Under the pieces are notes generated by a model. It was not told the origin of the DNA and searched no databases. It was given only the letters and a program-made list of their open reading frames with translations. Source: Stegostoma tigrinum (lineage: Eukaryota). Taken from it: a stretch of DNA of 64,000 nt. This document shows positions 18,141-62,597 of the stretch, piece by piece (the first letter of the stretch is position 1; each line of letters starts with the position of its first letter). A program made the position numbers and the translations under genes. Location: contig NC_081354.1 in assembly GCF_030684315.1 (NCBI RefSeq), positions 66,402,685 through 66,466,684 on the forward strand, read 5' to 3'.

Positions 18141-18340
18141 ACAGGTATGTTGCTGAAATGTGACATTGGTTGTAAAAATTAGATTTGTCCAGAGCCTATA
18201 TCAGAATAAATAGCAAGCATTGGGTTAGAGGAAGGACAATCATAACATGTTTCAATTGAAGCAGGGAGTGCAACAAGGCTATTTTGTGTTATGTCTTATC
18301 TATGTAAGTATACCTATAAGAGACAGGCTCATGATATCAT

Positions 18341-18468
18341 GAGCCTGAAGAAGGGTCCAGGGCCAAAACATCAGCCTTCCTGCACCTCTGATGCTGCTTG
18401 GCCTGCTGTGTTCATCCAGCTCTACACCTTGTCATCCCAGATTCCTCAGCATCTGCAGTTCCTACTAT
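18341..18468 (+). mobile_element. Solo Penelope pLTR mini-element with a degenerate hammerhead and 13-bp TSD
   Basis: TSD ctcatgatatcat at 18328-18340 and 18469-18481; begins gagcCTGAAGAagggtccagggccAAAACATC. Confidence 0.85.
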
Positions 18469-19641
18469 CTCATGATATCATCACTTAGTCATCCATTTTT
18501 GGTGATTAAATAGCTTAATGCTAGTGCAGACATATATGTGCCCACGAATGTAAAGTTATATATAATAGTTGGCTGTTCGATTCATAAATATCAAATGGCC
18601 AAACCCAGTTTCTTACCTTACAATAAGTGAGACAAGCAGTACCACACCAGGTAAAACACCCTGCCAGAGGAAAGATCATTTCATGGCAGCAGTTATAGCC
18701 ACCTATGATAAAGACTGCCAGATATTTGGAAAATAAATTGAAGACCAGCCAAGAACAGCTTTGGATATCAGAAAATACGATCAACAACACCAATTTCTAT
18801 TATATGAATAGCCGTGCACAACTGTGTTTAGAGCGTTGACCAGCATGCAGACAAACCTCATTGATGTCAATACAATTTCTTTCAAGATTCAGTAAGTTTA
18901 CGAGAGAGCCAATTAAAATGAAAAAGGTTGATCTTACAGTGAAATTAAAATGTACTCTATCTCTGTCACCTTTTATCTGAAAGAAAAAAGAGACAGCTGA
19001 TCCAGGTTTTTGACAAAGACAGTTAAATAGTCCTGAACACAGATCTGAAATCTACCCCATTGAAGAAAATGCGGCTTAAAATCACTTGAAAACAATTGGT
19101 TTCTACATTTAAAAGCTTCATCCATTCCCAACTTTGGCCAATTCCAGTTTTGTTTTAAAAATCAGCACAAAAATATAGAAACCATCATTCCTTTGGAAAG
19201 CAAATGCTACCAACAGGCAGAAACCCTGCTACCACGAGATTGTAATTCTTAAAAGAGATGCAACATAGAGAATATAAATAAATACAGAAGAATAAAAGGG
19301 GTAAAAATATATCTTCCTCCTTAATTAAATGGAAGGACCCACAGCCAAATGGAAGGCAAACATTAAAGTATGAATTGGACTTACCATGACACCTTTATTA
19401 GTTCAGCTATGCTTACAATGTGTGAAGATGAAACATGAGGTGATTCTAAGAGCTATGAAAGTCTTGCTTGCCATCAGTGAGGAGGGGCTTCACAGAATTT
19501 AAAAAAATGGTCTTTTCCTGAATAATCAGAAAGACACAAAAAGATTTGCAATGTTCTTGAAGGCAAGCTCAGGGTAAGAATTAAAGATTAAAATATTCAA
19601 GCTCATCTCATAGAGGAGCAGCCCCAAGTGTGTACTGACAA

Positions 19642-20740
19642 TGGGTCAGTGGGTTGAAGGGTAGCAGATGGAATTTAATTTGGATACATATGAGATATTG
19701 CATTTTACTGAAACAAATAAAAGCAAGACCTTTTCAATTGAAAGTAGAGCATTGGGTAGTATTGTAGAACAAAGACCTAGGAGTTCAGGTATGTAATTCG
19801 TTCCTTTTGCATTACATATAAATAAGGTGGTTGCCTTCATTGCTCAGACCTACGAGTAGAGGAGTTGAGATGTTATATTAAGGTTATGCAGGATGTCGGT
19901 GAGGTGTCTTCTGGAATATCGTGTGCGGCTCTGGTCATCCTCTTATAGGAAAGATATGATTGAGCTGCAGAGGGTTCCAGGATGTTGCCAGGAATGGAGG
20001 GGTTGAGCAATGAAGAGAGGCTGGATAGCCTGCAACTTTTTTCACTGCAGCATAGAAGCTTGAGGGGTGACATTATAGAATAATGAGGGGTATAGTTAAG
20101 GTGAATAGCAGATATCTTTTCCCTAGGGTGAGGCATTTCAAAACTACGAGGTTTTTTTAAGGGGACAGGAGAAAGATTTTAAAAAGACATGAGGGGCCAT
20201 GAGGAATGAACTACCAGAGAAAGTAGTGGATGTGGGTGTCATAGAATCCCTACAGAGTGGAAATGGGCCATTTGGCTCAACGAGTCCACACCAACTCTCT
20301 GAGGAACATCCTATCCAGACTCACTGCCGTACCCTATCCCTGCATTTCCCATGGCTAACCCACCTGACTACACATCCCTGGACACTATGGACAATTTAGC
20401 ATGGTCAATCCATCTAACCTACACACCTTTTGCACAGTGGGAGGAAACCGGAGCACCCAGAGGAAACCTGCAGCAACATGGCGAGAATGTGCAAACTCCA
20501 CACAGACACTCACCCGAGTCTGGATTTGAATCTGGGTCCTTGGTGCTTTGAGGCGGCAGTGCTAACCACTGAGCTACCGTGCTAGGTACTGGTATAACAT
20601 TTAAAAGACATTTAGATAAGTACATGAATAAGAAATATTTGGCAGGATATGGGACGGGCGCAGGTAAGTGCGACAAGTTTAGTTCGGGATCATAGTCAGC
20701 ATGGAATGAAATGGAAGGGTCTGTTTCGGTGCTGTATGAC
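19642..20740 (+). mobile_element. CR1 3' fragment inserted in Gypsy gag, itself interrupted by HE1
   Basis: QMEFN..YEILHF, LEYRVRLWSS and RMLPGMEG motifs; tail ctgtatgac; tgaca on both sides (possible short TSD). Confidence 0.85.
20238..20583 (-). mobile_element. HE1 SINE nested in CR1
   Basis: Head gcacggtagctcagtggttagcactgcc on the minus strand, V-domain and tail; the CR1 resumes at ~20586. Confidence 0.92.
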
Positions 20741-20788
20741 AGTTTTTCGAAAGTACTACGGCAAAAATGCGTGAATGCCACTTTGATG

Positions 20789-21087
20789 AGATTAGATTAG
20801 ATTAGATTCCCTACAGTGTGGAAACAGGCCTTCGGCCCAACAAGTCCACACCTCCCCTTGATATATCCCACCCAGACCCATTCCCCCTATAACCCACACA
20901 CTCCTGAACACTACAGGCAATTTAGCATGGCCAATCCACCTAGCCTGCACATCTTTGGATTGTGGGAGGAAACCGGAGCACCCGGAGGAAATCCACGCAA
21001 ACACAGGGAAAACGTGCAAACTCCACACGGACAGTCACCTGAGGCTGGAATCGAACCCGGATCCCTGGTGCTGTGAGGCTGCAGTGC
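20789..21087 (-). mobile_element. HE1 SINE, 5'-truncated, with (CTAAT)n tail
   Basis: (attag)n at 20791-20808; V-domain; B-box ggttcgattcc on the minus strand. Confidence 0.93.
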
Positions 21088-25022: not shown

Positions 25023-26179
25023 GGTATAAATCCTCTATCAATGCTTCATTCTGCCTTTTAAGTGAAGTCAGCTCAGCACATTTTCAGTTTTCCTAAAAGA
25101 CACATTTCCTCTAAACTGTGTGATTATTGCTGATTGTTACTTTGTTATATTGAAATGAAGATTGATGATTAAAATCGATTAAACCTCCAACTGTTGACAT
25201 ACGGTGGGTGTAGCAGACACCATTGGGATTTTTTTTGTTTGTGTAATAGATTAGATGAAACAAAAACAATTGTGTGAGATAAAAAGAGTCTATTTTATCA
25301 CCTTTTCATTTGTGCAAGTTGTCAGTTGACATTTGTTAAATATTCCCATTGAAATTTCTGGCAATAACATTAAACAATAAAAACATGAAAGAAATGCAAA
25401 AGAATTCTGACAGGTGCATAAAAAGTGCTTGGCTTCTAATTGCTATCCAAAATTCCATTCATGGCAATTAAAAATGCAACTGTTATTTGATGTACATGAA
25501 CTAGATGTCTCTTTTGCAGATTTCTTGCCAGCAGTTATTGCTGAAGGTCTTTTCTGAATAGCATTTTCCCTGTTGAAAAATCATTTTAAAACAATGACTT
25601 TCGAATTGATAATTGCAGCCTCAAATCCATGAAAACATACACTTACTGCTCTGCCTTGTAGAATGTGTGAAAAAAATTGAAGTGCCAGAATACTGAAGTG
25701 GTTCAATTTAGTTCCAATTAGAAAAATGTCCACCCCAAAGAAAACTAGCTTAATGATTATTCTGAATAGGCACTAATTTGCTCTCTATATGAATAAGGCA
25801 TTAAATCGTACAAATACACATGGCGTGGTGGTAGTGTTCCAGATAGCCCAGATTCAAATCACACCTGGTCAGGAATTTTATCCAGCATATCTAACCAGAT
25901 TGCTTTAAGAGACCACCTAAAAGCTTATCATTGAGTCATATAACATGACCCATGTCTGAGAAGGCAGTCAAAGTGACATGGTATAGACAGGTGAAAGGCA
26001 GAAAACTTTGGATGTCAGGACTGTCTTTGCTGGTTAGCCCCTTTTTAAAGATATTTATAAAAGAGGTCTATTATGGCAAATCGGTAATATCCCTCCCTCT
26101 AGTCCAAGTTCATCTGCCCCAATTGTGTGTTATGACATGGTTGTTTTAAAATGACTTTATGCCTCAAATCTAAAAGTCA

Positions 26180-26488
26180 AAGAATCCCTACAGTGTGGGA
26201 ACAGGTCCTTCAGGCAAAAAAGTCCACAACAGCCCTCAGAGCATCCCACTCAGATCCATCCCTCATAACCCACCTAATCTACACATCCCTGAACACTATG
26301 GGAAATTTAGCATGGCCAATCCACTTAGCCGGTACATCTTTGGACTGTGGGAGGAAACCGGAGCGTCTGGAGAAAACCCACACCGACACAGGGAGAATGT
26401 GCAAACTCCACACAGACAGGATGGAATCAAATCCAAGTCCCTGGCACTATGAGACAGCAGTGCTAACCAGTGAGTCACTGTGCTGCCC
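26180..26488 (-). mobile_element. HE1 SINE
   Basis: Head, V-domain and tail as in the other copies. Confidence 0.9.
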
Positions 26489-26498
26489 ATCAGAAAGT

Positions 26499-27460: not shown

Positions 27461-27500
27461 TTAATTTTGAAATGAGAGTACACCAAACTCAGCTTTTACT

Positions 27501-27622
27501 AAGATAATAAAGTGTGAAGCTGGATGAAGCTTTTGTGCTCCTGAGATGCTGCTTGGCCTGCTGTGTTCATCCAGCTTCACACTTTATTATCTTGGATTCT
27601 CCAGCATCTGCAGTTCCCATTA
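27501..27622 (+). mobile_element. Fold-back Penelope mini-element with 12-bp TSD
   Basis: TSD tcagcttttact at 27489-27500 and 27623-27634; 27501-27528 is an inverted copy of the internal ttcatccagcttcacactttattatctt. Confidence 0.88.
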
Positions 27623-28729
27623 TCAGCTTTTACTCAATTTAGTCTGCAGCACCATGTTCCTTAATTTGACATTATTTAGATTATGGTACAAGAACGGTTG
27701 TGTATGGAATCTAAATGCATCATTACATTAACATGCATTCTTCTAAGGATAAACTGCAGTATTTGGAAGGTAATTTTCTGCTGTTCATGAGCTATAATGA
27801 ATTGGGGACTGTTTTTGGGATGATATCAAACCAGTGTGAAATTAGCAGGGCCAGAATGAGCAGCCTATTTTCCAATGTCTTTTTTCCATCGAAATACTGA
27901 AACTGAAGTTCTAACACTTTGCAGGCTTATTTCCCACTCTCATCATAATGGATGCTTAATTTGAAATCGAAAACATTAGCAATATTTTCCAAGCCAATGC
28001 AGAAGAAAAACTGGCACAGTGTGGATGTTGCTAGAAGCCTTTCCCATCTGTCTGGCAGAGATAAATTTCTCCCCTGTTCTGGATACAACGGGGGGACTTT
28101 TGACAGAATTTCTCTTGACATACAATGTTGATCGGAGAGCACAGAAACTAAGGGGAAACAGCATTCATCCTATTTTTTAAGACTTCTGTGGCTCTGCCGC
28201 CAGTTAGGGTAAACATATAAGCAGATCTTTATGAATTCAATGTAACTAATAATCACAGCATTCTTCCTTCATAGTAATGGGTGAAATAACTTACTTGAAA
28301 ATTCAGCTTGACTTATTGAACACATTCTCTCCCTTCATTTTTTTTGGTTATTCAAATGTCATTAAAGTTTACCTTTTTAAGGAAATTTCTTTTAAGGAAA
28401 TTCCTTTTGGTTAGGTTTGATATTTTTGGCATCTACCACTTTCTCATTCATATTCTTATCTAATGTATATTTTATACATCAGTCCCATTTGCCTCAACTG
28501 CTTCTAGTTGTAAAGTATTCCATGTTCCCATAGTTCTCTGGGTAAACAAGTGTATTCTGAATTAATTTCTGTTTGATTTTTTTTGGTGACTACCTTCATA
28601 TAGATGGCCTGTAATTTAGCTTTTTTTTATATATGGAAAATTCACTTTACATCTACTCCACCAAAACCTTTTATTATTTTAGAAATCTTTAAATACCTCT
28701 TTACAGGATCCCAGTTTAATAACTCATAT

Positions 28730-29322
28730 GGGGAGACAGTATGGTATTATCACTAGTCTGTTAATCCAGAGACCCAGGGGATGTTCTGGGGTTAGAGATA
28801 ATGGGAACTGCAGCTGCTGGAGAATCCAAGATAACAAAGTGTGAAGCTGGATGAGCACAGCAGGCCAAGCAGCATCTCAGGAGCACAAAAGCTGACGTTT
28901 CGGGTCCAGACCCTTCATCCGATGCTCTCCAATGAAGGGTCTAGGCCCGAAACATCAGCTTTTGTGCTCCTGAGATGCTGCTTGGCCTGCTGTGTTCATC
29001 CAGCTTCACACTTTGTTATCTTCGATGTTCTGGGGTTATCGGTTTGAATCCCACCATGGTAGATGGTGGAATTTGAATTCAATAAAAATCTGGAGTTAGA
29101 GGTCTCACGACAACCATGAAATCATTCCCGATTGATAGGAAAATCCATCTAGTTCACTGACATCCTTTCGGGAAGGAAATTGCCATCCTTACCAGGTCTG
29201 GCCTCTATGTGACTCCAGATCCGCAGTAATGTGGTTTACTCTGAATTGCCGGATAAACAATTAGGGATGGGCAATAAATGCTGGCCTAGTCCCACACCTA
29301 CATTTCATGACAGAAATAAAAC
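28730..29322 (+). mobile_element. tRNA-headed SINE with L2-like 3' tail, interrupted by a Penelope mini-element
   Basis: Head ggggagacagtatggtattatcact..ggtttgaatccc; tail aattagggatgggcaataaatgctggcctag; same family as 59180-59565 and 63535-63870. Confidence 0.8.
28795..29023 (-). mobile_element. Palindromic Penelope pLTR mini-element with 15-bp TSD
   Basis: TSD gatgttctggggtta at 28780-28794 and 29024-29038; inverted arms ~28828-28918 and ~28932-29022. Confidence 0.9.
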
Positions 29323-32130: not shown

Positions 32131-32910
32131 CATAAATAAATGTGGATGCTGGATGTCAGGAACACATAAAATCATAAATTGCTGGAGAAACTCAGCAGAT
32201 ATGGCAGCATCTGTGGAAAGAGGGATACAGTTAATGTTTTGAGTCCAGTGATCCTTCTTCAGAGTTGCTAGCAACTCGGAAAACGTGATATTTATGATGA
32301 AGACCAGGGGGTGGGGGAAGGAGTGAGCAAATAAAAATGACCCTAACCTTCCAGATTTCTCCACCATGCTCCCTGTTAAAACACTTCTGACTCAGGCCGG
32401 CTGCATTACTCCAGCAAGACTCAATACAAGTTGTAAGAACAACATCATCTTCCATTTGGGTACATTACAGCCTTCAGGTCTCAATATTGAGTTTAATAAT
32501 TGTAGAGAAGGAGCACCTGTTCCAACATCGATTACCCACTTCCATACCCCAAGTACTGCCATGACATGGGTTTCTTTCAGCACTGCCAACCCATTTTCAC
32601 CCAGTCATAGCCCCCATTAGCAATTTTCAAGCTTCTCTTTAGCTTTCTATCAATAAGCCCTTTGCCTTTTTATTCTCCCTCTCTTTCTCTGCACTTTGTC
32701 TTCACCTATTTGCTCACTTCTTCCCCCGACCCCCTTTTCTTCATCATAAATATCACGTTTTCTGAGCTGCTAGCATCTCCGAAGAAGGGTCACTGGACTC
32801 AAAACATTAACTGTCTCCCTCTTTCCACAGATGCTGCCATATCTGCTGAGTTTCTCCAGCAATTTATGATTTTATGTGTCCCTGACATCCAGCATCCACA
32901 TTTATTTATG
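32131..32910 (+). mobile_element. Older Penelope family: 3' fragment with ~200-bp inverted pLTRs
   Basis: 32131-32333 is the reverse complement of 32707-32910; interior reads IIFHLGTLQPSGLNIEFNN (ORF 32366-32620); degenerate hammerhead ccgaaga-agggtcactggactc-aaaacatt at ~32779-32808. Confidence 0.85.
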
Positions 32911-35249: not shown

Positions 35250-36400
35250 TTATGTTCATATTTTTATGAGAAAGTAGGAAATAGTGGAAATATTTTAAAA
35301 AAGACGTGTGATTGTTGAAACCAGAAAAGAGAAGAACAGGCATTGACATCTGTCTAAAAGAATATTGCAAGTAGAGTATCACATAGATTTGTTTTGGGAC
35401 ATTTTTAAGATCTTTATAAATAATTTGACTCCGCTATTATTGAGTGTAGTGCCTACATTTACAGCTGCTATAAGACTGATGAAGGCAGTGGATTTGAAGG
35501 CTCAATGGGATAAGCTGAAGGAAGATTTGAAGGTGCTTGGGAATTGGGCAGTCAGGTGCCAGATTAAATTCATTCAAAGTGAAGAAATGTCAAGTGCTTC
35601 ACTTGAAGACAAAATAAATACATGGAAAGACAACTGCCCAAATGGAGATGGAAATAATGTCCACAGAAAATAGAAGCAAACCTGAGATCATGAGCTGACA
35701 ATACGTTGAAAATATTCCAACAATATTCAGTGAAAATGCATAAAGTAAATGAGATGTTGGCTAACATTTGGCTGAAATAGTGAGATGATTGCATGGCTTA
35801 TAAATAATTGGTATAATTACACTTAGAGTACTATTTACCGTTCTGACCACCACCACACAAGAAGCGTGTTGTTGCTGTTGAAATAATATTAGAAAGCAAC
35901 AACATTGAATGAAGGGGTGGAAAGATAATGTCATGAGTAGCACTTGCGTAAGTAAGCATACTCTCTTTTTAAGAGTCCAACTACGTATTGTGAACCAAAA
36001 CAAGCTACCTCACCTTGTCCAGAAAAGTAAAATTAGAGGCCTTGAGTGGGATGTGAAGTGGGTGTGAGGGTGGAGCTTATAAAGGGGTGTGGGTGGATAA
36101 ATTCAGAACTTTGACAGTAATAGTAGGAACTGCAGATGCTGGAGAATCCGAGATAACAAGGTGTAGAGCTGGATGAACACAACAGGCCAAGCAGCATCTT
36201 AGGAGCGGCTGCTTGGCCTGCTGTGTTCATCCAGCTTTACACCTTGTTATTTCTCATTGACAGTAATTTTTTTTTAAACCCGTGTGGTCGATCTGTGGGA
36301 AAGCCTTCCAAGAGTGAACTGTTCATAATGTTTCATTCACATGTATATTTGATCAATTTCCTTCTGCAAATAACATTTTAGTATACTATGGATGTATAAT
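35250..36400 (+). mobile_element. Ancient CR1/L2-type LINE remnant
   Basis: IFKIFINNL...KLKEDLKVLGNWAVRCQIKF (ORF 35365-35673), resembling LFLIYINDL..LQ.DL..L..WA..WQM.F. Confidence 0.55.
36122..36256 (-). mobile_element. Fold-back Penelope mini-element with 11-bp TSD
   Basis: TSD ttgacagtaat at 36111-36121 and 36257-36267; inverted arms gataacaaggtgtagagctggatgaacac..gcagc / gctgc..gtgttcatccagctttacaccttgttat. Confidence 0.88.
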
Positions 36401-38697: not shown

Positions 38698-40683
38698 TAA
38701 TAAAACGTGAGGCTGGATGAACACAGCAGGCCCAGCAGCATCTCAGGAGCACAAAAGCTGACGTTTCGGGCCTAGACCCTTCATCAGAGAGGGGGATGGG
38801 GTGAGGGTTCTGGAATAAATAGGGAGAGAGGGGGAGGCGGACCGAAGATGGAGAGAAAAGAAGATAGGTGGAGGGGAGAGTATAGGTGGAGAGGTGGGGA
38901 GGGGATAGGTCAGTCCAGGGAAGACGGACAGGTCAAGGAGGTGGGATGAGGTTAGTAGGTAGGAGATGGAGGTGCGGCTGGGGTGGGAGGAAGGGATGGG
39001 TGAGAGGACGAACAGGTTAGGCAAGCAGAGACAGGTTGGACTGGTTTTGGGATGCAGTGGGTGGAGGGGAAAAGCTGGGCTGGTTGTGTGGTGCAGTGGG
39101 GGGAGGGGACGAACTGGGCTGGTTTTGGGATGCAGTGGGGGAAGGGGAGATTTTGAAGCTGGTGAAGTCCACATTGATACCATTGGGCTGCAGGGTTCCC
39201 AAGCGGAATATGAGTTGCTGTTCCTGCAACCTTCGGGTGGCATCATTGTGGCACTGCAGGAGGCCCATGATGGACATGTCATCTAAAGAATGGGAGGGGG
39301 AGTGGAAATGGTTTGCAACTGGGAGGTGCAGTTGTTTATTGCGAACCGAGCGGAGGTGTTCCGCAAAGCGGTCCCCAAGCCTCCGCTTGGTTTCCCAATG
39401 TCGAGGTAGCCACACCGGGTACAGTGGATGCAGTATGTCACATTGGCAGATATGCAGGTGAACCTCTGCTTAATGTGGAAAGTCATCTTGGGGCCTGCGA
39501 TAGGGGTGAGGGAGGAGGTGTGGGGGCAAGTGTACCATTTCCTGCGGTTGCAGGGGAAGGTGCCGGGTGTGGTGGGGTTGGAGGGCATTGTGGATCGAAC
39601 AAGGGAGTCACGGAGAGAGTGGTCTCTCCAGAAAGCAGACAGGGGTGGGGATGGAAAAATGTCCTGGGTGGTGGGGTCGGATTGTAGATGGCGGAAGTGT
39701 CGGAGGATGATGCGTTGTATCCGGCAGTTGGTGGGGTGGTGTGTGAGAACGAGGGGGATCCTCTTTGGGCAGTTGTGGCTGGGGCGGGGTGTGAGGGATG
39801 TGTTGCGGGAAATGCGGGAGACGCGGTCAAGGGCGTTCTCGACCACTGTGGGGGGAATGTTGCGGTCCTTGAAGAACTTGGACATCTGGGATGTGCGGGA
39901 GTGGAATGCCTCATCGTGGGAGCAGATGCGGCGGAGGTGGAGGAATTGGGAATAGAGAATGGAATTTTTGCAGGAGGGTGGGTGGGAGGAGGTGTATCCT
40001 AGGTAGCTGTGGGAGTCGGTGGCCTTGAAACGCAAACCATTTCCACTCCCCCTCCCATTCTTTAGATGATATGTCCATCATGGGCCTCCTGCAGTGCCAC
40101 AATGATGCCACCTGAAGGTTGCAGGAACAGCAACTCATATTCCGCTTGGGAACCCTGCAGCCCAATGGTATCAATGTGGACTTCACCAGCTTCAAAATCT
40201 CCCCTTCCCCCACCGCATCCCAAAAATCAGCCCAGTTCGTCTCCTCCCCCCACTGCACCACACAACCAGCCCAGCTCTTCCCCTCCACCCACTGTTTCCC
40301 AAAACCAGTCCAACCTGTCTCTGCCTCCCTAACCTGTTCTTCCTCCCACCCATCCCTTCCTCCCACCCCAAGCCGCACCCCCATCTCCTACCTACTAACC
40401 TCATCCCACCTCCTTGACCTGTCCGTCTTCCCTGGACTGACCTATCCCCTCCCTACCTTCCCACCTATACTCTCCTCTCCACCTATCTTCTTTTCTCTCC
40501 ATCTTTGGTCCGTCTCCCCCTCTCTCCCTGTTTATTCCAGAACCCTCACCCGATCCCCCTCTCTGATGAAGGGTCTAGGCCCGAAACGTCAGCTTTTGTG
40601 CTCCTGAGATGCTGCGTTCATCCAGCCTCACATTTTATTATCTTGGATTCTCCAGCATCTGCAGTTCCCATTATCACTGATAC
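38698..40683 (-). mobile_element. Young Penelope-like element with a large inverted duplication: RT C-terminus/GIY-YIG arm (-, 38698-40032) and inverted 3' arm (+, 40033-40683)
   Basis: ORF 39283-40035 DSHSYLGYTSSHPPSCKNSILYSQF...FTCISANVTYCIHCTRCG and ORF 39017-39415 ETKRRLGDRFAEHLRS..GTLQPNGIN; 38698-39317 mirrors 40033-40640; acaaacc on both flanks. Confidence 0.95.
40563..40592 (+). ncRNA. Minimal type I hammerhead ribozyme motif in the pLTR; matching cores at 38760-38787 (-), 43878-43905 (+) and 45704-45731 (-)
   Basis: CTGATGA a GGGT CTAG GCCC GAAA C GTC^ag: intact CUGANGA and GAAA boxes, stem II, palindromic ACGU in place of stem III, GUC cleavage triplet. Confidence 0.75.
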
Positions 40684-43871: not shown

Positions 43872-43967
43872 AGCTCTCTGATGAAGGGTCCAGGCCCGAA
43901 ACGTCAGCTTTTGTGCTCCTGAGATGCTGCTGGGCCTGCTGTGTTCACCCAGCCTCACATTTTATTA
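43872..43967 (+). mobile_element. 96-bp Penelope pLTR mini-element with an intact hammerhead core and 14-bp TSD
   Basis: TSD tcacctaattaata at 43858-43871 and 43968-43981; CTGATGA..GAAACGTC at 43878-43905; lacks the ~35-nt 3' tail. Confidence 0.9.
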
Positions 43968-44932: not shown

Positions 44933-45030
44933 TTCTGAAGAAGAGTCAAGACCCAAAACGTCAGATTTCCTGCACCTCTGATGCTGCTTGGCCTGCTGTG
45001 TTCATCCAGCTCTACACCTCGTTATCTCAG
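44933..45030 (+). mobile_element. Penelope pLTR mini-element with a degenerate hammerhead
   Basis: tCTGAAGAagagtcaagacccAAAACGTCag..gtgttcatccagctctacacctcgttatctc; no clear TSD. Confidence 0.8.
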
Positions 45031-45639: not shown

Positions 45640-45826
45640 GATAACAAGATGTAGAGCTGGATGAACACAGCAGGCCAAGCAGCATCTTCGGAGCAGGAAA
45701 GCTGACGTTTCGGGCCTAGACCCTTCATCAGCTTTCCTGCTCCTCTGATGCTGCTTGGCCTGCTGTGTTCATCCAGCTTTACACCTTGTTATCTCGGATT
45801 CTCCAGCATCCGCAGTTCCTATAATC
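45640..45826 (+). mobile_element. Fold-back Penelope mini-element with 15-bp TSD (one mismatch)
   Basis: tccatttctaacctt at 45625-45639 and tccatttccaacctt at 45827-45841; inverted arm 45640-45731, forward arm from 45728. Confidence 0.88.
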
Positions 45827-45949: not shown

Positions 45950-46450
45950 TCTTTCAAATCATTTATTGTCACATGTATTTAATGTAAAAATGCAGTGAAA
46001 AGTATGTACCTTCGGCGTACATACTTGGCGCCACGCACATTAACTTAGAATAAGGCAAGAAAGAAAGATAACTTAAGAAAGTCCAACCTTCCTTTCCACT
46101 GCCAGAGTCCCACTGCGGGATTTCCAGCCCTCTCTATGCATCCGCCAGCATCCCACTGCAGGCTGCCTCACCGACTCGCTCACGCCAGCCCACTCTTGAT
46201 CCGCCGCTGTCACGACAGCCAACGCTCCATCCGCCGTTCCTGCGGGACACAACACATGCATTCAGCTCTCGCCACGTGATTCCCGGTCGCGACCCGGCTC
46301 CTTCCCACTCCTTAGGTAGGTAGTTAAAAGGAGTAGGGGGTGATAAAATTACAACAGGGGGAAAGACAAGAAGGGAGAAGATAAAGGAAGGAAAAAGAGA
46401 ACCGGTGAGCAAAGTGGAGCTCTGAATGCAGCGACTTACCCTAAAACTCG
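45950..46450 (-). mobile_element. Non-autonomous retroposon with Rex-Babar-like tail
   Basis: Reverse tail cttttcactgcatttt..tacatgtgacaataaatgatttga; CpG-rich body; 5' end gtaagtcgctgcattcagagctcc. Confidence 0.5.
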
Positions 46451-46879
46451 ATATGTATCACACTTCTTGAGCCATGGGTCTTCCTATTTCAATAATCTCC
46501 ATCCTCTTAAAATCTGCTCTTATCGTCCAGAATGTCCCATATGATTTCAAGTTTTGTGTCATCTGTCAACATGAAATTAAGCCCTTTATACCCAAATCTA
46601 GGTCACGTGTCTATTTTAGATTTATGAAATTTTCACTCTCACCATGTTGTCAGGATTTATATCAGTTCTGTGCAAGTATAATGCTTCTCCTGGATAGGAC
46701 GCAAATGGAAAAATAAAAAAACAGGCAGAAAGGATTCGGCACTTAATAGTTTTAAAGAATAACTAATGCTGTTGGAGACTTTTAAAGCCACCCAGAGGCA
46801 TTGAGAAATTACAAAAGCAAAATATCATGAAGTATAAACATAAATAATAAAGTGCCTTACAGACAAATGAAAAATAAAA

Positions 46880-46990
46880 TATGAACAAAAACAAAAATTG
46901 CTGGAAATTCTCAGCAGATCTGGTCGCATCTATGGAGAGAAAACAGAGCTAATGTTTCAGGTCCAGTGATCCTCCTTAAGAATTTCAGAA
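46880..46990 (-). mobile_element. Old Penelope pLTR fragment
   Basis: aacaaaaattgctggaaattctcagcagatctgg..ggagagaaaacagagctaatgtttcaggtccagtgatcc. Confidence 0.6.
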
Positions 46991-47934
46991 CAGAAAATAA
47001 TGTAGGGACAGGACAATTAAAGGATGCAACACAAGAAAAGAGATTGCAGTCTGGCAAATTAACTTTAAATTGGACAAAATGTGCTGATGTGCTTCAGTTA
47101 AAAAGAAAAATCAACTCAATCTTAGAAAATGAGAATCTAAATGCAGACAAAAGTAATGGGAGGCAAGGATACCCATGAACAAATTCTTAAAAGCAGCCAT
47201 TCGGATCAGCAAAACAATGACTAATTTTAACGAGTACATTGGACTGAATCTTCTGTTAAAACCCAAAGTGAATGGCTGCCTGCGGCCAAACCCCAGCTTT
47301 TGTTTTGGGCTGGAAGCGCAGCAAGTGAGAAGCATGACCGTATGTCTTTGGGGAGTTGTCATCAGGCTGTCAAGGGTCTCAACAGTGTAAGTCTGCGGTA
47401 ATCTCCCATGTTAGTTATTGACAGTTGTATTCATTTGCAATAAGTTCATATTTATTGGAAATGGTTTTTCAATAACTGGTTGTTTAGTTGGAAAAAACCT
47501 GACCTGCTAAGAGGAATATTCAATGGAATTTTCACTGACTGAATTGATTAACAGCTTTATAAAAATACTTGCAAGAGTGAGTTTCAATGGGTGATTCTTT
47601 TTATTCAGCCTGTATTTCAAAGATTTGCCAGAATTATTACGTGGCTCATTAGCTGTTAATGCAAGACAGCTACAAATCATCTGCAGATATCAGGACATTA
47701 AATCAATGTTGAAATCAAACGACAGGGTGTGCCCGACAAACAGGTATACCTGTTTTTCTGTACTTTAGAACAAGAGGACTTCATCCATTGGATAAAGGAC
47801 TCTAAAGCATTTGAGCCCTTTCACTATACTGGTTAATTTAATGGTCTCCTAATAACCCATATGATCAATCACTGCAGTGAGTGCATGCTTAAATCATCAA
47901 ATATTATTTTCCAGTACTTAAATAAAATGAGAGT

Positions 47935-48290
47935 ACAAAATGACCAGAGGTATGGATAGAGTGGACAGCCAGAGACGTTTTCCTAGGGTGGAGGTGGCTA
48001 CTATGAGGGGACATAGTATTAAAGTGAGTGGAGTTAGATATAGGAGAGATGTCAGAGCTAGGTTCTTTACTCAGAGAGTGGTAGGGGTGTGGGATGCATT
48101 GCTGGAGAGGGTAGTGGAGTCGGCCTCATTAGGAGCAGTTAAGCGGCTATTATGTAGGCATATGGATGATAGTATAAGGTAGGGGTGGAGGTTAGATAGA
48201 TATTAGGTTTAGGGTAAAAGTTCAGCACAACATTGTGGGCTGTAGGGCCTGTACTTTGCTGTACTGTTCTATGTTCCATGTTATAAATAA
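47935..48290 (+). mobile_element. CR1 3' fragment
   Basis: ORF 47940-48182 RGMDRVDSQRRFPR..RFFTQRVVGVW; tail ctgttctatgttccatg. Confidence 0.92.
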
Positions 48291-48530
48291 ACTAAGATCA
48301 TTTCAGTGAACATTGAGCCATGATCGGCTATGGTTTTTGACCCAATGAAAATGGTGGGCAGTGGGAATCAGAGGTGAGATTTAAAAATACAGCTCCAATT
48401 GCCTCCTGTTTTGTACTGTCAAGGTAGGTCTGCCCAGCAGCAGGAGGAAAATAACAAAAATCAGCCCTTGATTTTCCTTCATTTCTTTCAAGATCAGCTT
48501 ATGCCACCCTATACGAAGTAAAAATGAAAG

Positions 48531-48862
48531 AGCTTGCATTTACATAGCACCTTCTGTGATTTCACTATGTCCAAAACAAAAGCCAGGTGATCTTTTTAAC
48601 GTAATTTAGGAAACATAGCAGTCCTGATGAAGGGTTTCAGCCTGAAACATTGACTTCCCTGCTCCTCAGAGGCTGTCTGACCAGCTGTGCTTTTCCACCT
48701 CCACATCTATTGACTCCTGCAGCCAATTTACAAACAGCATGGTGCCATGAATAGTATTTAAATGTAGGACGAAGTAAATTGTTTAAGTGATGTTTGCCAA
48801 GGGACAACGGGGAAACCTCTCTGCTTTATTTGACTCATGCCACTCTATCTTTCACATCTCTT
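48531..48862 (-). mobile_element. DeuSINE-like remnant interrupted by a Penelope mini-element
   Basis: cttgcatttacatagcacc..taggaaacatagcag|ccaatttacaaacagc..ggggaaacctctctgct is the reverse Deu domain and tail. Confidence 0.55.
48622..48718 (+). mobile_element. Penelope pLTR mini-element (related subfamily) with a hammerhead-like core
   Basis: CTGATGAagggtttcagcctGAAACATTgacttccctgctcctc; gcag repeated at both junctions. Confidence 0.75.
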
Positions 48863-49793
48863 CTTCAGGAATAATAGTGGTTTATCTCAACTGAAATAAA
48901 AAGAAGGGTGTAAAAGCTGTGACCAGCAAATATAAAACAAGGTTGAGGAAGGACACAGCAATTGTGGTTTCTTCTGCATCATGAAATTCAAGTGCAAATT
49001 AGATAATGTTCTGCTGATTACTCTCCTATTCATAAATGTGACCCTGTGCTACCTGTCACTGTTTGATGCAATTGTCCATTAAGATCACCCTGACCTCATT
49101 GTTGACCTTCATTTGTGTTCCAAAGCAGCTTAGCACAATATCAAACCACACGAATCATCGAATTTGGTTCTGGATTTATTTGTTTATTGCTGAATGTATG
49201 TGTTGCTAACGAGGCTGGCCTTTATTCTCCATAGTTAATTGTCCTTAAGACGGTGGAATTCCATGTAGTGAAAGTGTTTTGATATCTTTGAAAGGTCTGT
49301 TTTCAATAAAGTTATTAATAAATTAAATAGCTTAGTTAGGGATGCAATTTTCTCTCGAACATCGAATGGACAATTTTAGCTTTTCAATTGTTGCTTCTTG
49401 AGATGGAGCTATTATTTTGAATGCTACGTTTGCAAAGTTGTCAGCATCCTGCAACAAACTTATAATCCTTCTTTAAGGCCATTTGGCCAATGACGTTTTT
49501 ACCACTTTACACGGCTTCCTTCCTACCCACTTCGGACTCCTAGCCTATACCACAACTGCCTGTATTACCACCTCTAAATGATTCAAATTACTCTCTCATG
49601 AAAATCTTTGACCTGATTTTGAATAAGAAATCAAGTGTTGTGTAAAACAAATTGCCATTTTGCCATTGTCCATTTTGCATTTTCATCAAGAAATGATTTC
49701 ACCACCCCCCCTTGTGAACTCCAACATTGCATCACAAGGTTTCAAAGCTCAATATCAAAATGTGGGCATCCCCAGCAACAACAGCATTATTAC

Positions 49794-52700
49794 CAAAGAA
49801 ACAAAGAAGCCTACAACACAGGAACAGGCCCTTCGGCCCTCCAAGCCAGTGCCGATTAAGATCCTCTGTCTAACCTGTCATCTATTTTCTAACGGTCTAT
49901 GTCCATTTGCTCCATGCCCATCCATGTACCTGTCCAAATATATCTTAAAAGACGCTAACGTGTCTGCGTCTACCACCTCCGCTGGCAACGTGTTCCAGGC
50001 ACCCACCACCCTCTGCGTAAAGAACTTTCCACGCATATCTCCCTTAAACTTTCCTCCTCTCACTTTGAACTGATGACCTCTAGTAATTGAGTCCCCCACT
50101 CTGGGAAAAAGCTTTTTGCTATCCACCCTGCCTGTACCCCTCATGATTTTGTAGACCTCAATCAGGTCCCCCCTCAATCTCCATCTTGCTAATGAAAGTA
50201 ATCCTAATCTATTCAACCTCTCTTCATAGCTATCACCCTCCATACCAGGCAACATCCTGGTGAACGTCCTCTGCACCCTCTCCAAAGCATCCACATCCTT
50301 TTGGTAATGTGGCAACCAGAACTGCACACAGTACTCCAAATGTGGCCGAACCAAAGTCCTATACAACTGCAACATGACCTGCCAACTCTTGTACTCAGTA
50401 CCCCGCCCAATGAAGGACAGCATGCCATATGCCTTCTTGACCACCCTATTGACCTGCGTTGTCACCTTCAGGGAACAATGCACCTGAACACCCAGATCTC
50501 TCTGTTCATCTATTTTCCCTAGGACTTTTCCATTTACTGTACAGTTCGCCCTTGAATTTGATCTTCCAAAATGCATCACCTCGCATTTACCTGGATTGAA
50601 CTCCATCTGCCATTTATCTGCCCAACTCTCCAGTCTGTCAATATTCTGCTGTAATTTCTGACAGTCCCCTTCACTATCTGCTACTCCACCAATCTTAGTG
50701 TCATCTGCAAACTTGCTGATCAGACCACCTACACCTTCCTCCAGATCATTTACATATATCACAAACAACAGTGGTCCCAGCACAGATCCCTGTGGAACAC
50801 CACTGGTCACAGGTCTCCAATTTGAGAAACTCCCTTCTACTACTACCCTCTGTCTCCTGTTGCCCAGCCAGTTTTTTATTCATCTAGCTAGCACACCGTG
50901 GACCCCATGTGACTTCACTTTCTCCATCAGCCTGCCATGGGGAACCTTATCGAATGCCTTACTGAAGTCCATGTATGTTACATCTACAGCCTTTCCCTCA
51001 TCAATCAACTTTGTCACGTCCTCAAAGAATTCTATTAAGTTGGTAAGACATGACCTTCCCTGTACAAAACCATGTTGCCTATCACTGATAAGCCCATTTT
51101 CTTCCAAATGTGAAGAGATCCTGTCCCTCAGTATCTTCTCCAGTAGCTTCCCTACCACTGACGTCAGGCTCACCGGTCGATAATTATCTGGACTATCCTT
51201 GCTGCCCTTTTTAAACAAGGGGACAACATTAGCAAGCCTCCAGTCCTCTGGGACCTCACTCGTGTCTAAGGACGCTGCAAAGATATCTGTTAGGCCCCCG
51301 GCTATTTCCTCTCTCGCTTCCTTCAGCAACCTGGGATAGATCCCATCCGGACCTGGGGACTGGACCACCTTAATGTCCTTTAGGATACCTAACACTTCTT
51401 CCTTCCTTATGTCAACTTGACCTAGACTAAGCAAACATCTATCCCTAACCTCAACATCCGTCATGTCCCTCTCCTTGGTGAATACTGATGCAAAGTACTC
51501 GTTAAGAATGTCACCCATTTTCTCTGACTCAGCGCATAACTTTCCTTCTTTGTCCTTAAATGGGCCAATCCTTTCTCTAGTTACCCTCTTGCTCTTTATA
51601 TATGAATAAAAGGCTTTGGGATTTTCCTTAACCATGTTTGCCAGCAATATCTCATGTCCTCTCTTAGCCCTCTTAATCCCTCGTTTCGGATTCGCTCTAC
51701 ATTCCCGATATTCTTGCAAAGCTTCGTCTGTCTTCAGTCGCCTAGACCTCATGTATGCTTCCTTTTTTCTCTTGGCTAGTCTCACAATTTCACCTGTCAT
51801 CCATGGCTCCCTAATCTTGCCTTTTCTATTCCTCATTTTCACAGGAACATGTCTCTCCTGCACACTAATCAACCTCTCCTTAAAAGCCTCCCACATATCA
51901 AATGTGAATTTACCTTCAAACAGTTTCTCCCAATCTACCTTCCTCAGATCCTGCCGAATCTTGGTATAGTCAGCCTTCCCCCAGTTTAGAACTCTTCCTT
52001 TAGGACCACTCCCATCCTTGTCCATGAGTATTGTAAAACTTACAGAATTGTGGTCGCTATTTCCAAAGTAGTCCCCTACTGTAATATCAACACCTGGCCG
52101 GGTTCATTCCCCAGCACCAGGTCCAGTATGGCCCCTTCCCGGTTAGACTACATACATACTGCTCTAGAAAACCCTCCTGGACACACCTTACAAATTCTGC
52201 TCCATCTTGACCCCTAACACTGAGTGAATCCCAGTCAATGTTGGGAAAATTAAAATCTCCCATCACCACCACCCTGTTTCTCCTACACCTTTCCATTATC
52301 TGTTTACATATTTGTACCTCTATCTCATGCTCGCTGTTGGGAGGCCTGTAGTACAGCCCGAATGTTGTTACTGCATCCTTCCTATTTCTGAGTTCTACCC
52401 ATATTGCGTCACTGCCTGAGTCCTCCATGGGGCCCTCCTTCAGTGCGGCTGTGATATTGTCTTTGACCATTACTGCAACTCCTCCACCCCTTTTACCTCC
52501 CTCTCTATCCCGCCTGAAGCATCGATATCCTGGGACAACTAGTTGCCAGTCATGCCCTTCCCTCAACCAAGTCTCAGTAATAGCAATAACATCGTACTTC
52601 CAGGTACCGATCCAAGCCCTAAGCTCATCTTGCCTTGTCTACTACACTTCTCGCATTAAAACAAATGCACCTCAGACCACCTGTCCCTTTGTGTTCATCA

Positions 52701-54765: not shown

Positions 54766-55239
54766 GATGTGTCAAATTTTCCTGATTGCATCCGACTGAC
54801 TGTCCAATTCATGCTGTATCTTCTATCACAATAATCATCTCTGCATTCAGCCTTTGGGTAATCTCCTGATCATATGTTAATTAGTATTATTGGCCTTCTG
54901 TCCAACGATGAGTGCTATTCAAACATTACTGAGCAGAATTTACAGACTATCAATAAACCACCACTTAATATATCCAAAAACATTGAGAATATAAGTATAA
55001 GTACCATGATGTTGAAGATATGTATCCCAGTGATGGAGTTCATTGTTGCTGACATAATGGTAAATGACTTTGTAAAATTCCAGTGCAGCTTTGCATAAAA
55101 ATCCCAAACTAAAAATTTCATGTGATGACGACTGCCAATTGATTCTACTCATTCTGAGAACACAGGGTATATTCTTTCAATGCTGGAGGATAGATAAAGA
55201 ACGTAAAAATGACACTCAATGAACAGAGATAGCAAGAAC

Positions 55240-57207
55240 TTCAGATGCTGGTGTCAGAGACAACAGTGTGGAGCTGGATGAGCACAGCAGGCCAAGCAGC
55301 ATCAGTGGAGCAGGAAAGTTGATGTTTCGGATCGAGACCCTGCTTCACAAATGGGAAACGGGGAAGGGACCTGGGAAATAAATTGAGAGAGGAGGGATGG
55401 GTCTGGTAGGTGGGATGGTGATAGGTGAGTGCAGGGAGGGAATAATGGGGATTCGTTAGTGGGATGTGTGGGGTGGATAGATGGGAGAGAAGATGGACAA
55501 GGTGTATCAGGTCAAGGAGGCAGGGATGAGAGGGAGGGTTAGTCATGGGGTGGGGAGATTTTAAAACTGATAACTTCTATGTTTAGGCCATTGGGCTGCA
55601 TGCTTCTGAGGTGGAATATGAGGTGTTGCTCCTCCAGTTTGCGGGTGGTATCATTGTGTCACTGGAGGGGGCCCAGGATGAAAAAGAGACAATCTAATCG
55701 CCGTCCCTTGACATTCAGCGGTGTTATCATCACTGAATCTCCCACTATCAACATCCTGGGGGCTACCATTGACCAGAAATCCAACTAGACTCATCACATA
55801 AAGACAGTGGCTACAAGAGCAGGCCAGAACCTGGGAATACTCTGGCAAGTAACTCACCTCCTGACTCCTCAAAGCCTGTCCACCATCTATAAGGCACAAG
55901 AGTGGAGTGTGATGGAATACTCCCCACTTTCCTGGATGAGTGCAGACCCAACAACACTCAAGGTACTTGACACCATCCAGGACAAAGCAGCCCACTTGCC
56001 TGGCACTACATCCACAAGCATCCACTCGCTCCATCACCGATGTTCAATAGCAGCAGTATGTACTATATACAAGATGTACTGCAGAAATTCACCAAAGATC
56101 CTCAGACAGCACCTTCCAAACCCGTGACCACTTCCAACTAGAAGGACAAGGGCATCAGATACATGGGAACACCACCACCTGCAAGTTCCCCTCCAAGCCA
56201 CACATCATCCTGACTTGGAAATATATCACCGTTCCTTCTCTGTCACTGGGTCAAATTCCTGGAATTCCCTCCCAACTGGCATTGTGGGTCAACCTAAGCA
56301 GGTGGACTGCAGCGGTTCAAGGAGGCAGCTCACTACCACCAACTGGGGGCAGGCAATGCACAAGTGTCACCCAGCGAGTGAGGGGGGGGGAGTTAAAATG
56401 ATTGGTGACCAGAAGCTATTGTTTGTCGCATAAAGAGTGCGGATGCTCTACGAAACAGCCTCTGAGTTCACACTTGGTCTCACCGATGTAAAGGAGGCCA
56501 CACCGGGAGCAGCGGATACAGTGGACCAAGTTGACTGGTGTGCAGGTGAGCCCCTGCATAATGTGGAAGATTTGGTTTCGACCTTGAATGGAGGTGAGGG
56601 GGCAGGTGTAGCACTTCCTGTGGTTGCAGGGAAAGATGCTGGGAGTGGTGAGGCTAGTGGGGAGTGTGGAGAAGACGAGGGAGTCACGGAGAGAACGGTC
56701 CCTACAAGAGGCAGATGGGGGTGCGGAGGGAAATATATCTTGGTTGCGGGAATGGATTCTAGGTTGTGGAAGTGGTGGAGAATGATATACTGAATGTGGA
56801 GGCTGACAGGGTGATATGTGAGGACAAGGGGGATTTTGTCTTCACTTTTGTTGAGGGGGGGAAGGGCATGTGAGGGCAAAAGTGTGGGAAACACAAGAGA
56901 TGCGGTCAAGGGTATTTTCGATCGCTAGAGGGGGCAAGTGACTGTCCTTGAAATAGAAGGACATCTGTGATGTGCGGGAGTGGAACATGCCATGTTGGGA
57001 GCAGACGCGGCGGAGACAGACCTGGACTATCTCCAATACTCCTACCCTTTCCTGGGTCTCTCTGTCTCCATCTCTGATAACCGCCCAAAAACTGACATCT
57101 ATTGAAGCCCACCAACTCCCATAGCAACCTGGACTACATTTCTTCTCACCCACGTTCCTGCAAGAATGCGATCCCCTACTCCCAAATCCTTTGCCACCGC
57201 TGCATCT
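55240..57207 (-). mobile_element. Penelope-like element interrupted by an L2-like LINE, with a 5' inversion (57023-57207 on +)
   Basis: pLTR from 55240; KIPLVLTYHPVSLHIQYIILHHF (ORF 56448-56909); plus-strand WTISN..PFL..SVSISDNR.KTDIY.KPTNSHSNLDYISSHPRSCKNAIPYSQ. Confidence 0.9.
55681..56360 (+). mobile_element. L2-like LINE 3' fragment inserted into the PLE
   Basis: ORF 55807-56127 LSTIYKAQEWSVMEYSPLSWMSA..LDTIQDKAA; PLE sequence resumes at tgtcacccagcgagtg. Confidence 0.88.
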
Positions 57208-60621: not shown

Positions 60622-61287
60622 TAAGACCATAAGAAATAAGAACAGGAGTAGGCCATTTGGCTCATCAAATCTGCTTCACTATTTAATAAGACCATGGCTG
60701 ATCTGACATTCTATGTCTAATTGCCTGCCCTTTCCCCTTACCCTTGATTGCATTACTCACCAAGAATTTATCTAGTCAGCCTTAAATATACACAAGGACT
60801 GTGCCGCCACAGCTGTCTGTGGCCAGGAGTTTCATAGTCTGTCAATCTTCTGAGAAAAGAAATTCCTCCTCATCTCAGTCTCAAATTGATTCCCCTTTAT
60901 TCTGAGACTGAGCTCTCTCATCCTCGACTGTCCCATGAGGGGAAACTTCCTCTCACCATTTATTCCATCGAGCCTGTTAAGAATCCTATCTGTTTCAATG
61001 AGATCTCCTCTCATTTTTCTAAACTCCATTTGTAGAGTCCCAAACTGATTAATCTTTGCTCAGAAGAACCCTCAATATTGGGGATCACCCAGTGTACCTT
61101 CTCTGAATTGCCTGCAACAAGATGTCGTATTTTCCTAAATAAAAGGAACAGAACTGCTCACAGTACTTCAGATGTTGTCTCACCAGCACCTTGTACAGTT
61201 GCAGTAAGATTTCCATACTCTTATACTCCAACCCCCTTGAAATAAGGGCCAACATTCCATTAGCCTTCCTGATTACCTGCTGCATAG
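60622..61287 (-). mobile_element. CR1 3' fragment; upstream part resumes at ~62381-62580 beyond the PLE
   Basis: ORFs 60832-61029 and 61085-61285 (QQVIRKANGMLA..LYKVLVRQHLKYC); reverse tail ataagaccataagaaataag. Confidence 0.9.
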
Positions 61288-61298
61288 GTCGTAAATGT

Positions 61299-62380
61299 GA
61301 TGCAAACAGTTTATAGTGAGATTAAGTAAGTGCTGAGGTTGGTTGGCTCGCCAAGCTGGTTTGTTGTTTTTGCTTGGTAACATCTTCAGTGCTGCCTCCA
61401 ATGAAGCGACGGTGTGTTTTCCTGCCTGGCTTTTAAACTCTGGGGTCCGTTGAGATGGATTGCCTCACTTGCGGTTTTCCTTCGTAGTGGAGTGTATATG
61501 GGGTCGAGTTCAATGTGTTTATTGACAGCTTGCTTTGTGGAGTGCCATGCTGTACACATAAAAGCCTCACACACAGACCAGGTACTGAACTTCAACAGTA
61601 ACCATCCCAGCACACACAAACAAAGTTGTGTGTGAACACTATTTAAAAGAGCAACAACACACTGCAGCAACATGGAACTACACCAAGAGGAGGAGGAATA
61701 CCTCTTCCAAGTGCTCAAGGATAATGGATATCCAAAGAACTGGGTCAGGAGATGCCTACACAAACAGCATCAGAAAGATACTGCATGCCCCGACACACAC
61801 ATCACACTACTCTACATCAGGAACACGTCGGGATTCACCACAAGACTCCGACTAAACTAAAGACCCACTCCCTACAATGGACAGGACCAATGCCATCCAC
61901 AAGATACCTTGCAGAGACTGCGAGAAACACTCCATCGGACAAACAGGAAGGAAACTAACAACAAGAGTACATGAACCCCAACTGGCTGCAAAAAGACACG
62001 ACCAATACTCAGTCATCTCGATCCACATGGACAAGGAGAACCATAACTTTGACTGGGACAACACCAAGATGCTGGGACAGGCTTGGCAGAGACAAGCACG
62101 GGAATTCATGGCACTCCACGAAGCAGGCTATTAATAAACACATTGAATTCGACCCCGTATACATTCCACTACGGAGGAAAACCGGAAGTGAGGCAATCCA
62201 TCTCAACGGACCCCAGAGTTTAAAAGCCAGGCAGGAAAACACACTGATGCTTCATCGCAGGCTGCACTGAGGATGTTACCAAGCACGGTAACAAAACATC
62301 TGCAAAAAAAAACAACAAATCAACACGGCGAGCCAACGAACCTCAACTCTTACTTAATCTCACTATAAACTGTTTGCATC
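61299..62380 (+). mobile_element. Third Penelope family: RT C-terminus + GIY-YIG with an inverted 3' duplication
   Basis: KASHTDQVLNFNSNHP; NGYPKNWV; NAIHKIPCRDCEKHSIGQTGRKLTTRVHE..HNFDWDN; 61299-61549 is the reverse complement of 62107-62380. Confidence 0.92.
62263..62304 (+). ncRNA. Decayed type I hammerhead ribozyme motif
   Basis: tgca CTGAGGA t GTTACC aagcac GGTAAC AAAA CATC tgca: stem I tgca/tgca, 6-bp stem II; GAAA and CGTC altered in a way consistent with CpG decay. Confidence 0.7.
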
Positions 62381-62438
62381 CTAATTATGACTTGCCATTC
62401 CACCTATTTTAGTGTAGCCAGCAAACCTGGCTACAGTA

Positions 62439-62556
62439 GGGTCTAGGCCCGAAACGTCAACTTTTGTGCTCCTGAGATGCTGCTGGTCCTGCTGTGTTCA
62501 TCCAGCCTCACATTTTATTATCTTGGATTCTCCAGCATCTGCAGTTCCCATTATCA
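62439..62556 (+). mobile_element. Solo Penelope pLTR mini-element with 12-bp TSD
   Basis: TSD ctggctacagta at 62427-62438 and 62557-62568; begins inside hammerhead stem II (gggtctaggcccgaaacgtc). Confidence 0.9.
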
Positions 62557-62597
62557 CTGGCTACAGTACATTCACTTTGTCCTAGTCATTAATATGT

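Follow-up and report, generated by a model that had tools for sequence, protein, structure and literature searches.

Among Penelope-like elements (PLEs), the endonuclease-positive (EN+) elements of the Neptune type have one open reading frame (ORF) for a reverse transcriptase (RT) with a GIY-YIG endonuclease (EN) at its C terminus, a CX2-5CxxC linker and pseudo-long terminal repeats (pLTRs) with a minimal hammerhead ribozyme motif; the accessible text of two papers also describes an inverted 5'-truncated copy, a 30-40 bp tail at one end only, and target-site duplications (TSDs) near 9-10 bp or longer (PMC8557442; PMC3846280). For the Poseidon element PAc of Anolis, the available part of the study reports two internal RT start sites that bracket the PLE tail 3' of the hammerhead, cutting and extension of both strands, and no need for hammerhead cleavage (PMC11167929). 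The third related system is that of the animal non-LTR retrozymes, tandem arrays with a type I hammerhead in each unit (PMC7229834; 10.64898/2026.07.22.740005); the portion of the second source that we could consult reports such arrays, with a mean unit of 363 bp, in one chondrichthyan and favours later local amplification as their origin. Here we describe short pLTR inserts in 64,000 nt of Stegostoma tigrinum DNA (NC_081354.1, positions 66,402,685 to 66,466,684; the whole stretch is called the window below), together with the PLE from which they come. The original prediction, made from the window alone, had read these inserts as a family of independently integrated, hammerhead-bearing Penelope mini-elements of 100-230 bp that behave as a short interspersed nuclear element (SINE) or a retrozyme.

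The inserts are the ends of an abundant Neptune-like EN+ Penelope element with intact copies elsewhere in the genome. In a protein search of the genome the best 150 of 164,422 candidates were scored, and all 150 showed 91-100% identity; two of eight fetched loci (L051 and L052) have open frames of 1,092 and 1,094 aa, which extend from the pLTR as far as the 3' untranslated region (UTR). Pfam domains RVT_1 (E=1.8e-5) and GIY-YIG (E=0.0044) were detected on the long ORFs, both below Pfam's cut-offs; the DKG, YIDD and GIY-YIG/CCHH motifs expected of a single-ORF EN+ PLE can be read in the parent sequence, and so can the PLE architecture of pLTR, inverted 5'-truncated copy and 30-40 bp tail. All long ORFs that span the region between RT and EN have a CX4CxxC linker there; linkers of the CX2-5CxxC form are typical of Neptune, and also of Nematis, in the accessible text of PMC8557442. 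Element positions are given on a natural copy (L054), in which 0 is the first base 3' of the hammerhead GUC, i.e., the cut site. An ATG at +138 opens 1,080 codons; therefore the sequence found in the short inserts (stubs), which closes the element at its 3' end, is at the same time the 5' leader of the ORF.

Insertions were surveyed in a sample of 1.384 Mb, made up of 24 blocks, each 50 kb long, and of the window extended by 60 kb on either side, by a segmentation that misses segments below about 30 nt and copies below about 65% identity. The sample holds 175 PLE insertions, or 1 per 7.9 kb, and the predicted density of about one per 7 kb thus holds genome-wide; 113 of them are pLTR-only (minis), and 53 of these 113 have an inverted arm. 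TSDs of 9-17 bp were found for 73 of the 175. The pLTR body has 178,113 exact matches in the genome.

The 3' ends of 108 young segments in the sample fell at +61..+70 (53 segments) and +94..+100 (52 segments), two clusters that match the internal RT start sites bracketing the tail in the available account of PAc (PMC11167929). At the 5' end, 31 of 71 young segments that reach the hammerhead stop at -28..-35, and 1 of 40 ends within -38..-100 (one edge segment was left out of the end-position table); the latter count rules out an intron ending at the conserved AG near -51. The stop rate per base is 0.056 at -28..-35, 0.0004 at -38..-100 and 0.001-0.003 further upstream, which gives a local excess of about 20- to 40-fold. 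Genome-wide, where exact matches were counted at successive element positions, 70,259 matches reach -32 and 7,339 of them (10.4%) drop out at -33, followed by losses of 7,205 over -34..-36 (4.0% per base) and 4,724 over -37..-42 (1.5% per base); by our own arithmetic the step amounts to about 11,000 excess segments. When 30 junction matches were inspected, 4 turned out to be long copies with a point change, in line with the baseline. A reference-free recount, which shares part of its copies with the ruler-based count, found that 26 of 92 young segments stop at -28..-36, as do 25 of 39 older ones, although the local sequence differs. The predicted excess of pLTR-sized copies is therefore real in both the sample and the genome-wide counts, neither of which shows the smooth truncation that had been named beforehand as evidence against it. 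The sharp 5' stop and the pLTR-only majority set the present element apart from the Neptune-type PLEs as described in the accessible parts of PMC8557442 and PMC3846280. PAc, which belongs to a different clade, shares the paired start sites and, on the reading proposed below, the cutting and extension of both strands; the start sites of the present element lie upstream of the ATG, and the PAc study, in its available part, maps 3' ends and does not report a 5' stop or multi-unit products (PMC11167929).

Wrap-around inserts and tandem arrays were found outside the window. Twenty loci with the tail-to-ORF junction (1,749 exact matches genome-wide) were taken in listed order: 11 wrap, running back through the pLTR to an upstream position and resuming downstream, 7 enter the ORF, and 2 end at +187 and +212. 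Two of those 11 (L268 and L269) are one wrap-around insertion present twice, inverted and 53 kb apart, by local duplication or an assembly effect. Among the 12 loci picked first, 8 of which were chosen for repeated matches, 11 wrap and 6 are arrays. The six near-perfect arrays (L251, L252, L253, L254, L255 and L257) consist of pLTR-ORF-start units with a hammerhead core in each, in units of 329 nt (5.7 copies), 166 nt (7.8), 293 nt (4.2), 336 nt (4.0), 362 nt (3.9) and 305 nt (2.7) that are 98-100% alike. Three have TSDs of 14, 18 and 11 bp, and none was found for the other three. The cores are unchanged in the four multi-unit arrays checked base by base, except in the first piece of L253. One array fills both arms of an inverted insertion:

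G000:C1:104860633-104863049, array L251; both inverted arms share the junction and a private change in all 8 pieces; ends at +98 and +63; one TSD

The structure of L251 points to a single repeating template that was read at insertion. Exact matches to its 329-nt junction number 64; they lie at 34 loci on 22 contigs, 10 with a spacing of 328-330 nt. Because another locus has the junction but not the private change of L251, and because variants of the junction occur close by, the recurrence may instead come from a hotspot of independent events; later slippage may add units. Back-splicing was rejected as the source of the junction, there being no AG acceptor at -115. Judged from their sequences, the arrays were likely written by rolling-circle copying, and they look like the predicted product of RT on circular RNA in the available text of PMC7229834 and PMC4209133. 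With at least two consecutive units that carry a complete hammerhead, they agree with the tandem arrangement of non-LTR retrozymes, which they also resemble in unit length (166-362 nt), a type I core per unit, derivation from a pLTR and long TSDs (PMC7229834; 10.64898/2026.07.22.740005, each in its accessible part). They differ from these retrozymes in that the hammerhead is minimal rather than canonical, the sequence is 98-100% identical to a living PLE, the ends lie at PLE start sites, and one array occupies both inverted arms. The units with the 329-nt junction thus read as retrozyme-like units with Penelope ends.

Three further observations concern these inserts. At L260:387-592, a wrap-around insert within a 9-bp TSD has its junction between +172 and about 0, the hammerhead cut site. 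The array of about 4.0 units at L254:571-1913 begins at +157 and ends at +155, which are not the usual start sites, with an 11-bp TSD. The 3' sides of the wrap-around junctions pile up at +207..+220 (L251, L265, L279, L282, L261, L262, L258, L257 and L280), possibly an RNA 3' end or a third start site.

We consider it an even call that the fixed-stop end pieces arise when RT, having started inside the 5' leader of the element RNA, copies up to the 5' end of that RNA, likely the transcription start, and runs off there; the stubs would then likely be run-off cDNAs that reach from an internal priming site to the 5' terminus of the template. Retroviral minus-strand strong-stop DNA is likewise a short cDNA, primed internally and extended as far as the 5' end of the RNA. 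The likeness is an analogy only, the stubs being target-primed and directly integrated on this reading, with no tRNA primer and no shown 3'-end transfer. The GIY-YIG endonuclease would cut both strands with a stagger of 9-17 nt, and each nick would prime a cDNA at +64 or +97, which on RNAs starting at -33/-32 would measure 96 or 130 nt. One cDNA would give a direct stub, two cDNAs joined head to head would give a fold-back, and cDNAs made on read-through RNA would give the long truncated copies. The minority templates would be short RNAs across the pLTR-ORF junction, on which passage from the 5' to the 3' end, through a circle or an end-to-end jump, would produce the wrap-around inserts and perfect arrays. 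In two of 42 arm pairs (L134:7733-8253 and L168:2787-2993) the two arms belong to different common haplotypes, told apart at three linked sites, as would be expected of separate cDNAs primed at two nicks; gene conversion is the alternative.

Promoter-like context at the stop fits a transcription start. All three subfamilies have a TATTT motif some 30 nt upstream of it; at -32 the two older ones have the A of YYANWYY and the young one has the C of YCTYTYY (initiator and TATA consensus and spacing from the accessible part of PMC4581360). A G precedes -32 in 71 of the first 100 listed junction matches. Several points weigh against run-off at a transcription start: TATTTAT is a weak match to TATAWAAR, YCTYTYY is easily met within a pyrimidine tract, and the extra G is often accounted for by the inverted arm or the TSD, which leaves copying of a cap suggestive. 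The starts of most wrap-around units lie far upstream of -32 (-71 to -277), and therefore many templates do not begin there. The Penelope of D. virilis has a TATA-less internal promoter (PMC2377424). Finally, the hammerhead sequence is predicted to fold as a hairpin over -28..+1, and a stop 1-7 nt above it could be structural.

A strong rival, which we rate as possible though somewhat unlikely, keeps the same dead-end stubs and explains the stop by 5'-3' exonuclease trimming to the edge of a protein-bound hairpin, or by release of RT just past the hairpin. The predicted fold favours it, since the stop lies 4 nt above the hairpin, at the 5' edge of helix I, which in the oldest subfamily has 4 bp; so does the ragged-ended look of the wrap-around templates round the pLTR-ORF junction, with 3' ends mostly at +172..+268, like a protected fragment. 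It accounts less well for an initiator-like sequence exactly at -32 and a TATTT 30 nt upstream that are kept in three locally differing subfamilies, for the lowest stop rate lying directly upstream of the stop, and for the G excess at the junction.

The hammerhead itself appears to play a minor part. The motif has the features of a minimal type I core as given in the available text of PMC4209133, namely the boxes, one base between 9 and 10.1, the G10.1-C11.1 pair and a palindromic 15.2-16.2; helix I, for which 4-5 bp are expected, has 2 bp in the young subfamily and 4 bp in the oldest, and the predicted fold is the alternative hairpin. Starts exactly at 0 number 5,790 of 178,113 (3.25%), against 1.29% and 1.38% at the adjoining bases, controls that are counts only, while loci at the cut site itself were inspected. 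Thirty such loci comprised 7 point changes, 12 fold-backs on an AGCT palindrome, 4 microhomology joins and 7 clean junctions. Hammerhead cleavage may feed a small insert class, and the palindrome together with the hairpin base at the cut site accounts equally well for the excess. Cleavage was ruled out as the chief source of the minis because their 5' ends lie 28-35 nt upstream of the cut site and the excess at 0 is small. A linkage test on 90 long copies, which bears on transfer between molecules only, gave no sign of such transfer at the hammerhead: D' between +26 and the upstream sites stays at 0.74-1.0.

It is very improbable that the 100-230 bp units form a SINE-like or retrozyme-like family that propagates itself, its transcripts being remobilised in trans. 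The great excess of pLTR-sized copies (113 of 175), the modest excess of starts at the cut site and recurrent palindromic junctions at -32 would agree with such a family, as would clustering of the minis across all ages. Against it, the core is kept in 24 of the 113 minis, the ends lie at -32 instead of 0, and only the 7 clean junctions above remain among the 30 cut-site loci. The 1.384 Mb, window included, hold no tandem array with two or more consecutive complete hammerheads; the single head-to-tail repeat there has a 54-nt unit without a core. Young minis (42) and long copies (40) share haplotypes and interleave (nearest-neighbour test, p=0.17). Stubs lack both the TATA-like motif (-62..-56) and the ORF-start region, which the PAc template needs according to the accessible part of PMC11167929. 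Because of these two absences and because young minis form no lineage of their own, the stubs are probably dead ends and not a SINE; they also consist of pLTR sequence throughout (no pol III scan was made). Two findings weigh against dead ends: over all ages (134 insertions) the minis do cluster (p=0.001), and their share rises with age from 11 of 32 to 33 of 40. Both may come from subfamily history or from poorer alignment of old upstream sequence. The predicted likeness to retrozymes survives in part: retrozyme-like units do exist in this genome, but they are the longer wrap-around units of 166-362 nt outside the window and not the 100-230 bp inserts, which are monomers or fold-backs.

Even less credible is an origin of the inserts as solo pLTRs, produced when the two pLTRs of a full-length insertion recombine. 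The usual order of PLE parts (inverted pLTR, pLTR, ORF, pLTR; PMC3846280, accessible part) would indeed collapse to a TSD-flanked two-arm stub, and the rise of the mini share with age would agree. But no full-length copy is among the 175 sampled insertions, the tail-to-ORF junction is rare beside the pLTR body (1,749 vs 178,113 exact matches) with 7 of 20 such loci running on into the ORF, the 5' ends at these loci are scattered (+77 to beyond -497) and not at -32, and minis with 99-100% identity to the young reference are present. Ordinary smooth truncation from the 5' end, in which chance makes short copies the most frequent, can practically be dismissed: heavy truncation is known for PLE insertions (PMC8557442, in its accessible text) and the stop rate is flat beyond -100, but neither the local excess at -28..-35 with its genome-wide step nor the same end point in the older subfamily would follow from it.

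The stub architecture is already known (PMC3846280 and PMC8557442, in their available parts), and the window stubs by themselves are ordinary PLE debris; the novelty lies in the fixed stop with its promoter-like context, and in the arrays flanked by TSDs, rather than in seven inserts. We found no published description of this family, of the fixed stop or of TSD-flanked PLE concatemers in a search that left subscription papers, Dfam and Repbase outside, and the preprint tables may list chondrichthyan arrays; 10.1101/2025.06.08.657570 has no whole-word mention of Penelope. The PLE transposition route, the origin of partial tandems and the mobilisation of animal retrozymes by PLE RT via circular RNA are questions posed in PMC2377424 and in the accessible parts of PMC11167929, PMC7229834 and 10.64898/2026.07.22.740005. 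With more than 170,000 exact pLTR matches, intact ORFs, a base-sharp stop and arrays that end at RT start sites within one TSD, each step becomes testable with one protein and defined RNAs. Speculatively, and with some doubt, the whole Penelope cycle may be preserved here: strong-stop-like cDNA would run to the cap, failed transfers would leave tens of thousands of start-marking stubs, passage to the RNA 3' end or round a hammerhead-released circle would yield wrap-arounds and TSD-flanked concatemers, and the 329-nt unit at 34 loci would be a newborn retrozyme family spread by its parent PLE via rolling-circle target-primed reverse transcription.

The short inserts of the window are as follows.

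18341..18468, plus strand: pLTR stub of an older subfamily, about -28..+97; core mutated; TSD 18328-18340 / 18469-18481
27501..27622, plus strand: two-arm stub; the arm +38..+65 (27501-27528) is inverted, the arm 0..+96 is direct and starts at the cut site; no core; TSD 27489-27500 / 27623-27634
28795..29023: palindromic two-arm stub, -29..+97 (minus) and -32..+68 (plus); both cores mutated; TSD 28780-28794 / 29024-29038
36122..36256: two-arm stub without a hammerhead, arms +9..+95 (minus) and +20..+62 (plus); TSD 36111-36121 / 36257-36267
43872..43967, plus strand: direct stub and type example, -32..+63 with 2 extra bases at the 5' junction; intact core 43878-43905; TSD 43858-43871 / 43968-43981
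44934..45030, plus strand: older-subfamily stub, from about -29; core mutated; TSD not found
45640..45826: two-arm stub, one arm -28..+63 (minus) with an intact core, the other -2..+97 (plus); TSD 45625-45639 / 45827-45841, one mismatch
48620..48706, plus strand: stub of the oldest subfamily, starting near -32/-33; core present, helix I of 4 bp; TSD not found
62439..62556, plus strand: direct stub, -20..+96, begins inside the core; TSD 62427-62438 / 62557-62568

Most of what had been read directly from the window was borne out. The seven TSDs are present with the predicted lengths (13, 12, 15, 11, 14, 15 with one mismatch, and 12 bp), no TSD of at least 8 bp was found at 44933 and 48622, and the inserts measure 96-229 bp where 100-230 bp had been given. 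Random placements put through the same search gave a chance TSD of at least 11 nt in 2 of 400 cases. Each of the seven has its own TSD and PLE tail ends, in keeping with independent PLE-type integrations, and no poly(A) or tRNA-like head was seen by eye in the printed copies (again without a pol III scan). The description as hammerhead-bearing copies of the same pLTR was not confirmed. An intact core is present in two of the seven TSD-flanked inserts (43872 and 45640), plus 48622; 27501, 36122 and 62439 begin within or below the core, and in 18341, 28795 and 44933 it is mutated. At least three subfamilies are mixed among the inserts. Four of the seven (27501, 28795, 36122 and 45640) have a head-to-head two-arm structure, which the prediction had not mentioned. 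An Rfam scan of the window (E<=1) returned no hammerhead, as expected for a minimal motif, and only chance miRNA hairpins on the fold-backs. A comparison with empty sites for window positions 42000-49200 was dominated by repeat-derived joints, and no listed contig bridges an insertion.

The "coding element" predicted at 38698-40683 turned out to be a longer two-arm stub, with a broken C-terminal part that includes the GIY-YIG region and no RT core.

38698..40021, minus strand: inverted arm, -1267..+61; broken C-terminal ORF piece, CX4CxxC linker, GIY-YIG region, 3' UTR and pLTR without tail
38760..38787, minus strand: intact minimal hammerhead core, -28..-1
38815..38821, minus strand: TATA-like TATTTAT with a putative promoter function, -62..-56, 30 nt upstream of the stop (-32 = 38791)
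40032..40679, plus strand: direct arm, -553..+96, with tail; 12-nt deletion near 40615

Older-subfamily long PLE copies, 66-80% alike to the young subfamily, occur in the window at 14170-14925 and 55226-57015.

Other repeats in the window include a broken long interspersed nuclear element with AP endonuclease and RT domains at 49878-52638 (minus strand), which we take to be CR1-like. A second dispersed family of about 300 bp, unrelated to the pLTR and presumably a SINE, is present at 7012-7329, 20239-21087, 26174-26488, 36516-36824, 42770-43022 and 62597-62927. Positions 32131-32333 and 32707-32910 form a 204-bp inverted repeat of 95% identity with related pieces at 5637-5743, 11899-11988 and 46887-46984, possibly the remnant of a DNA transposon.

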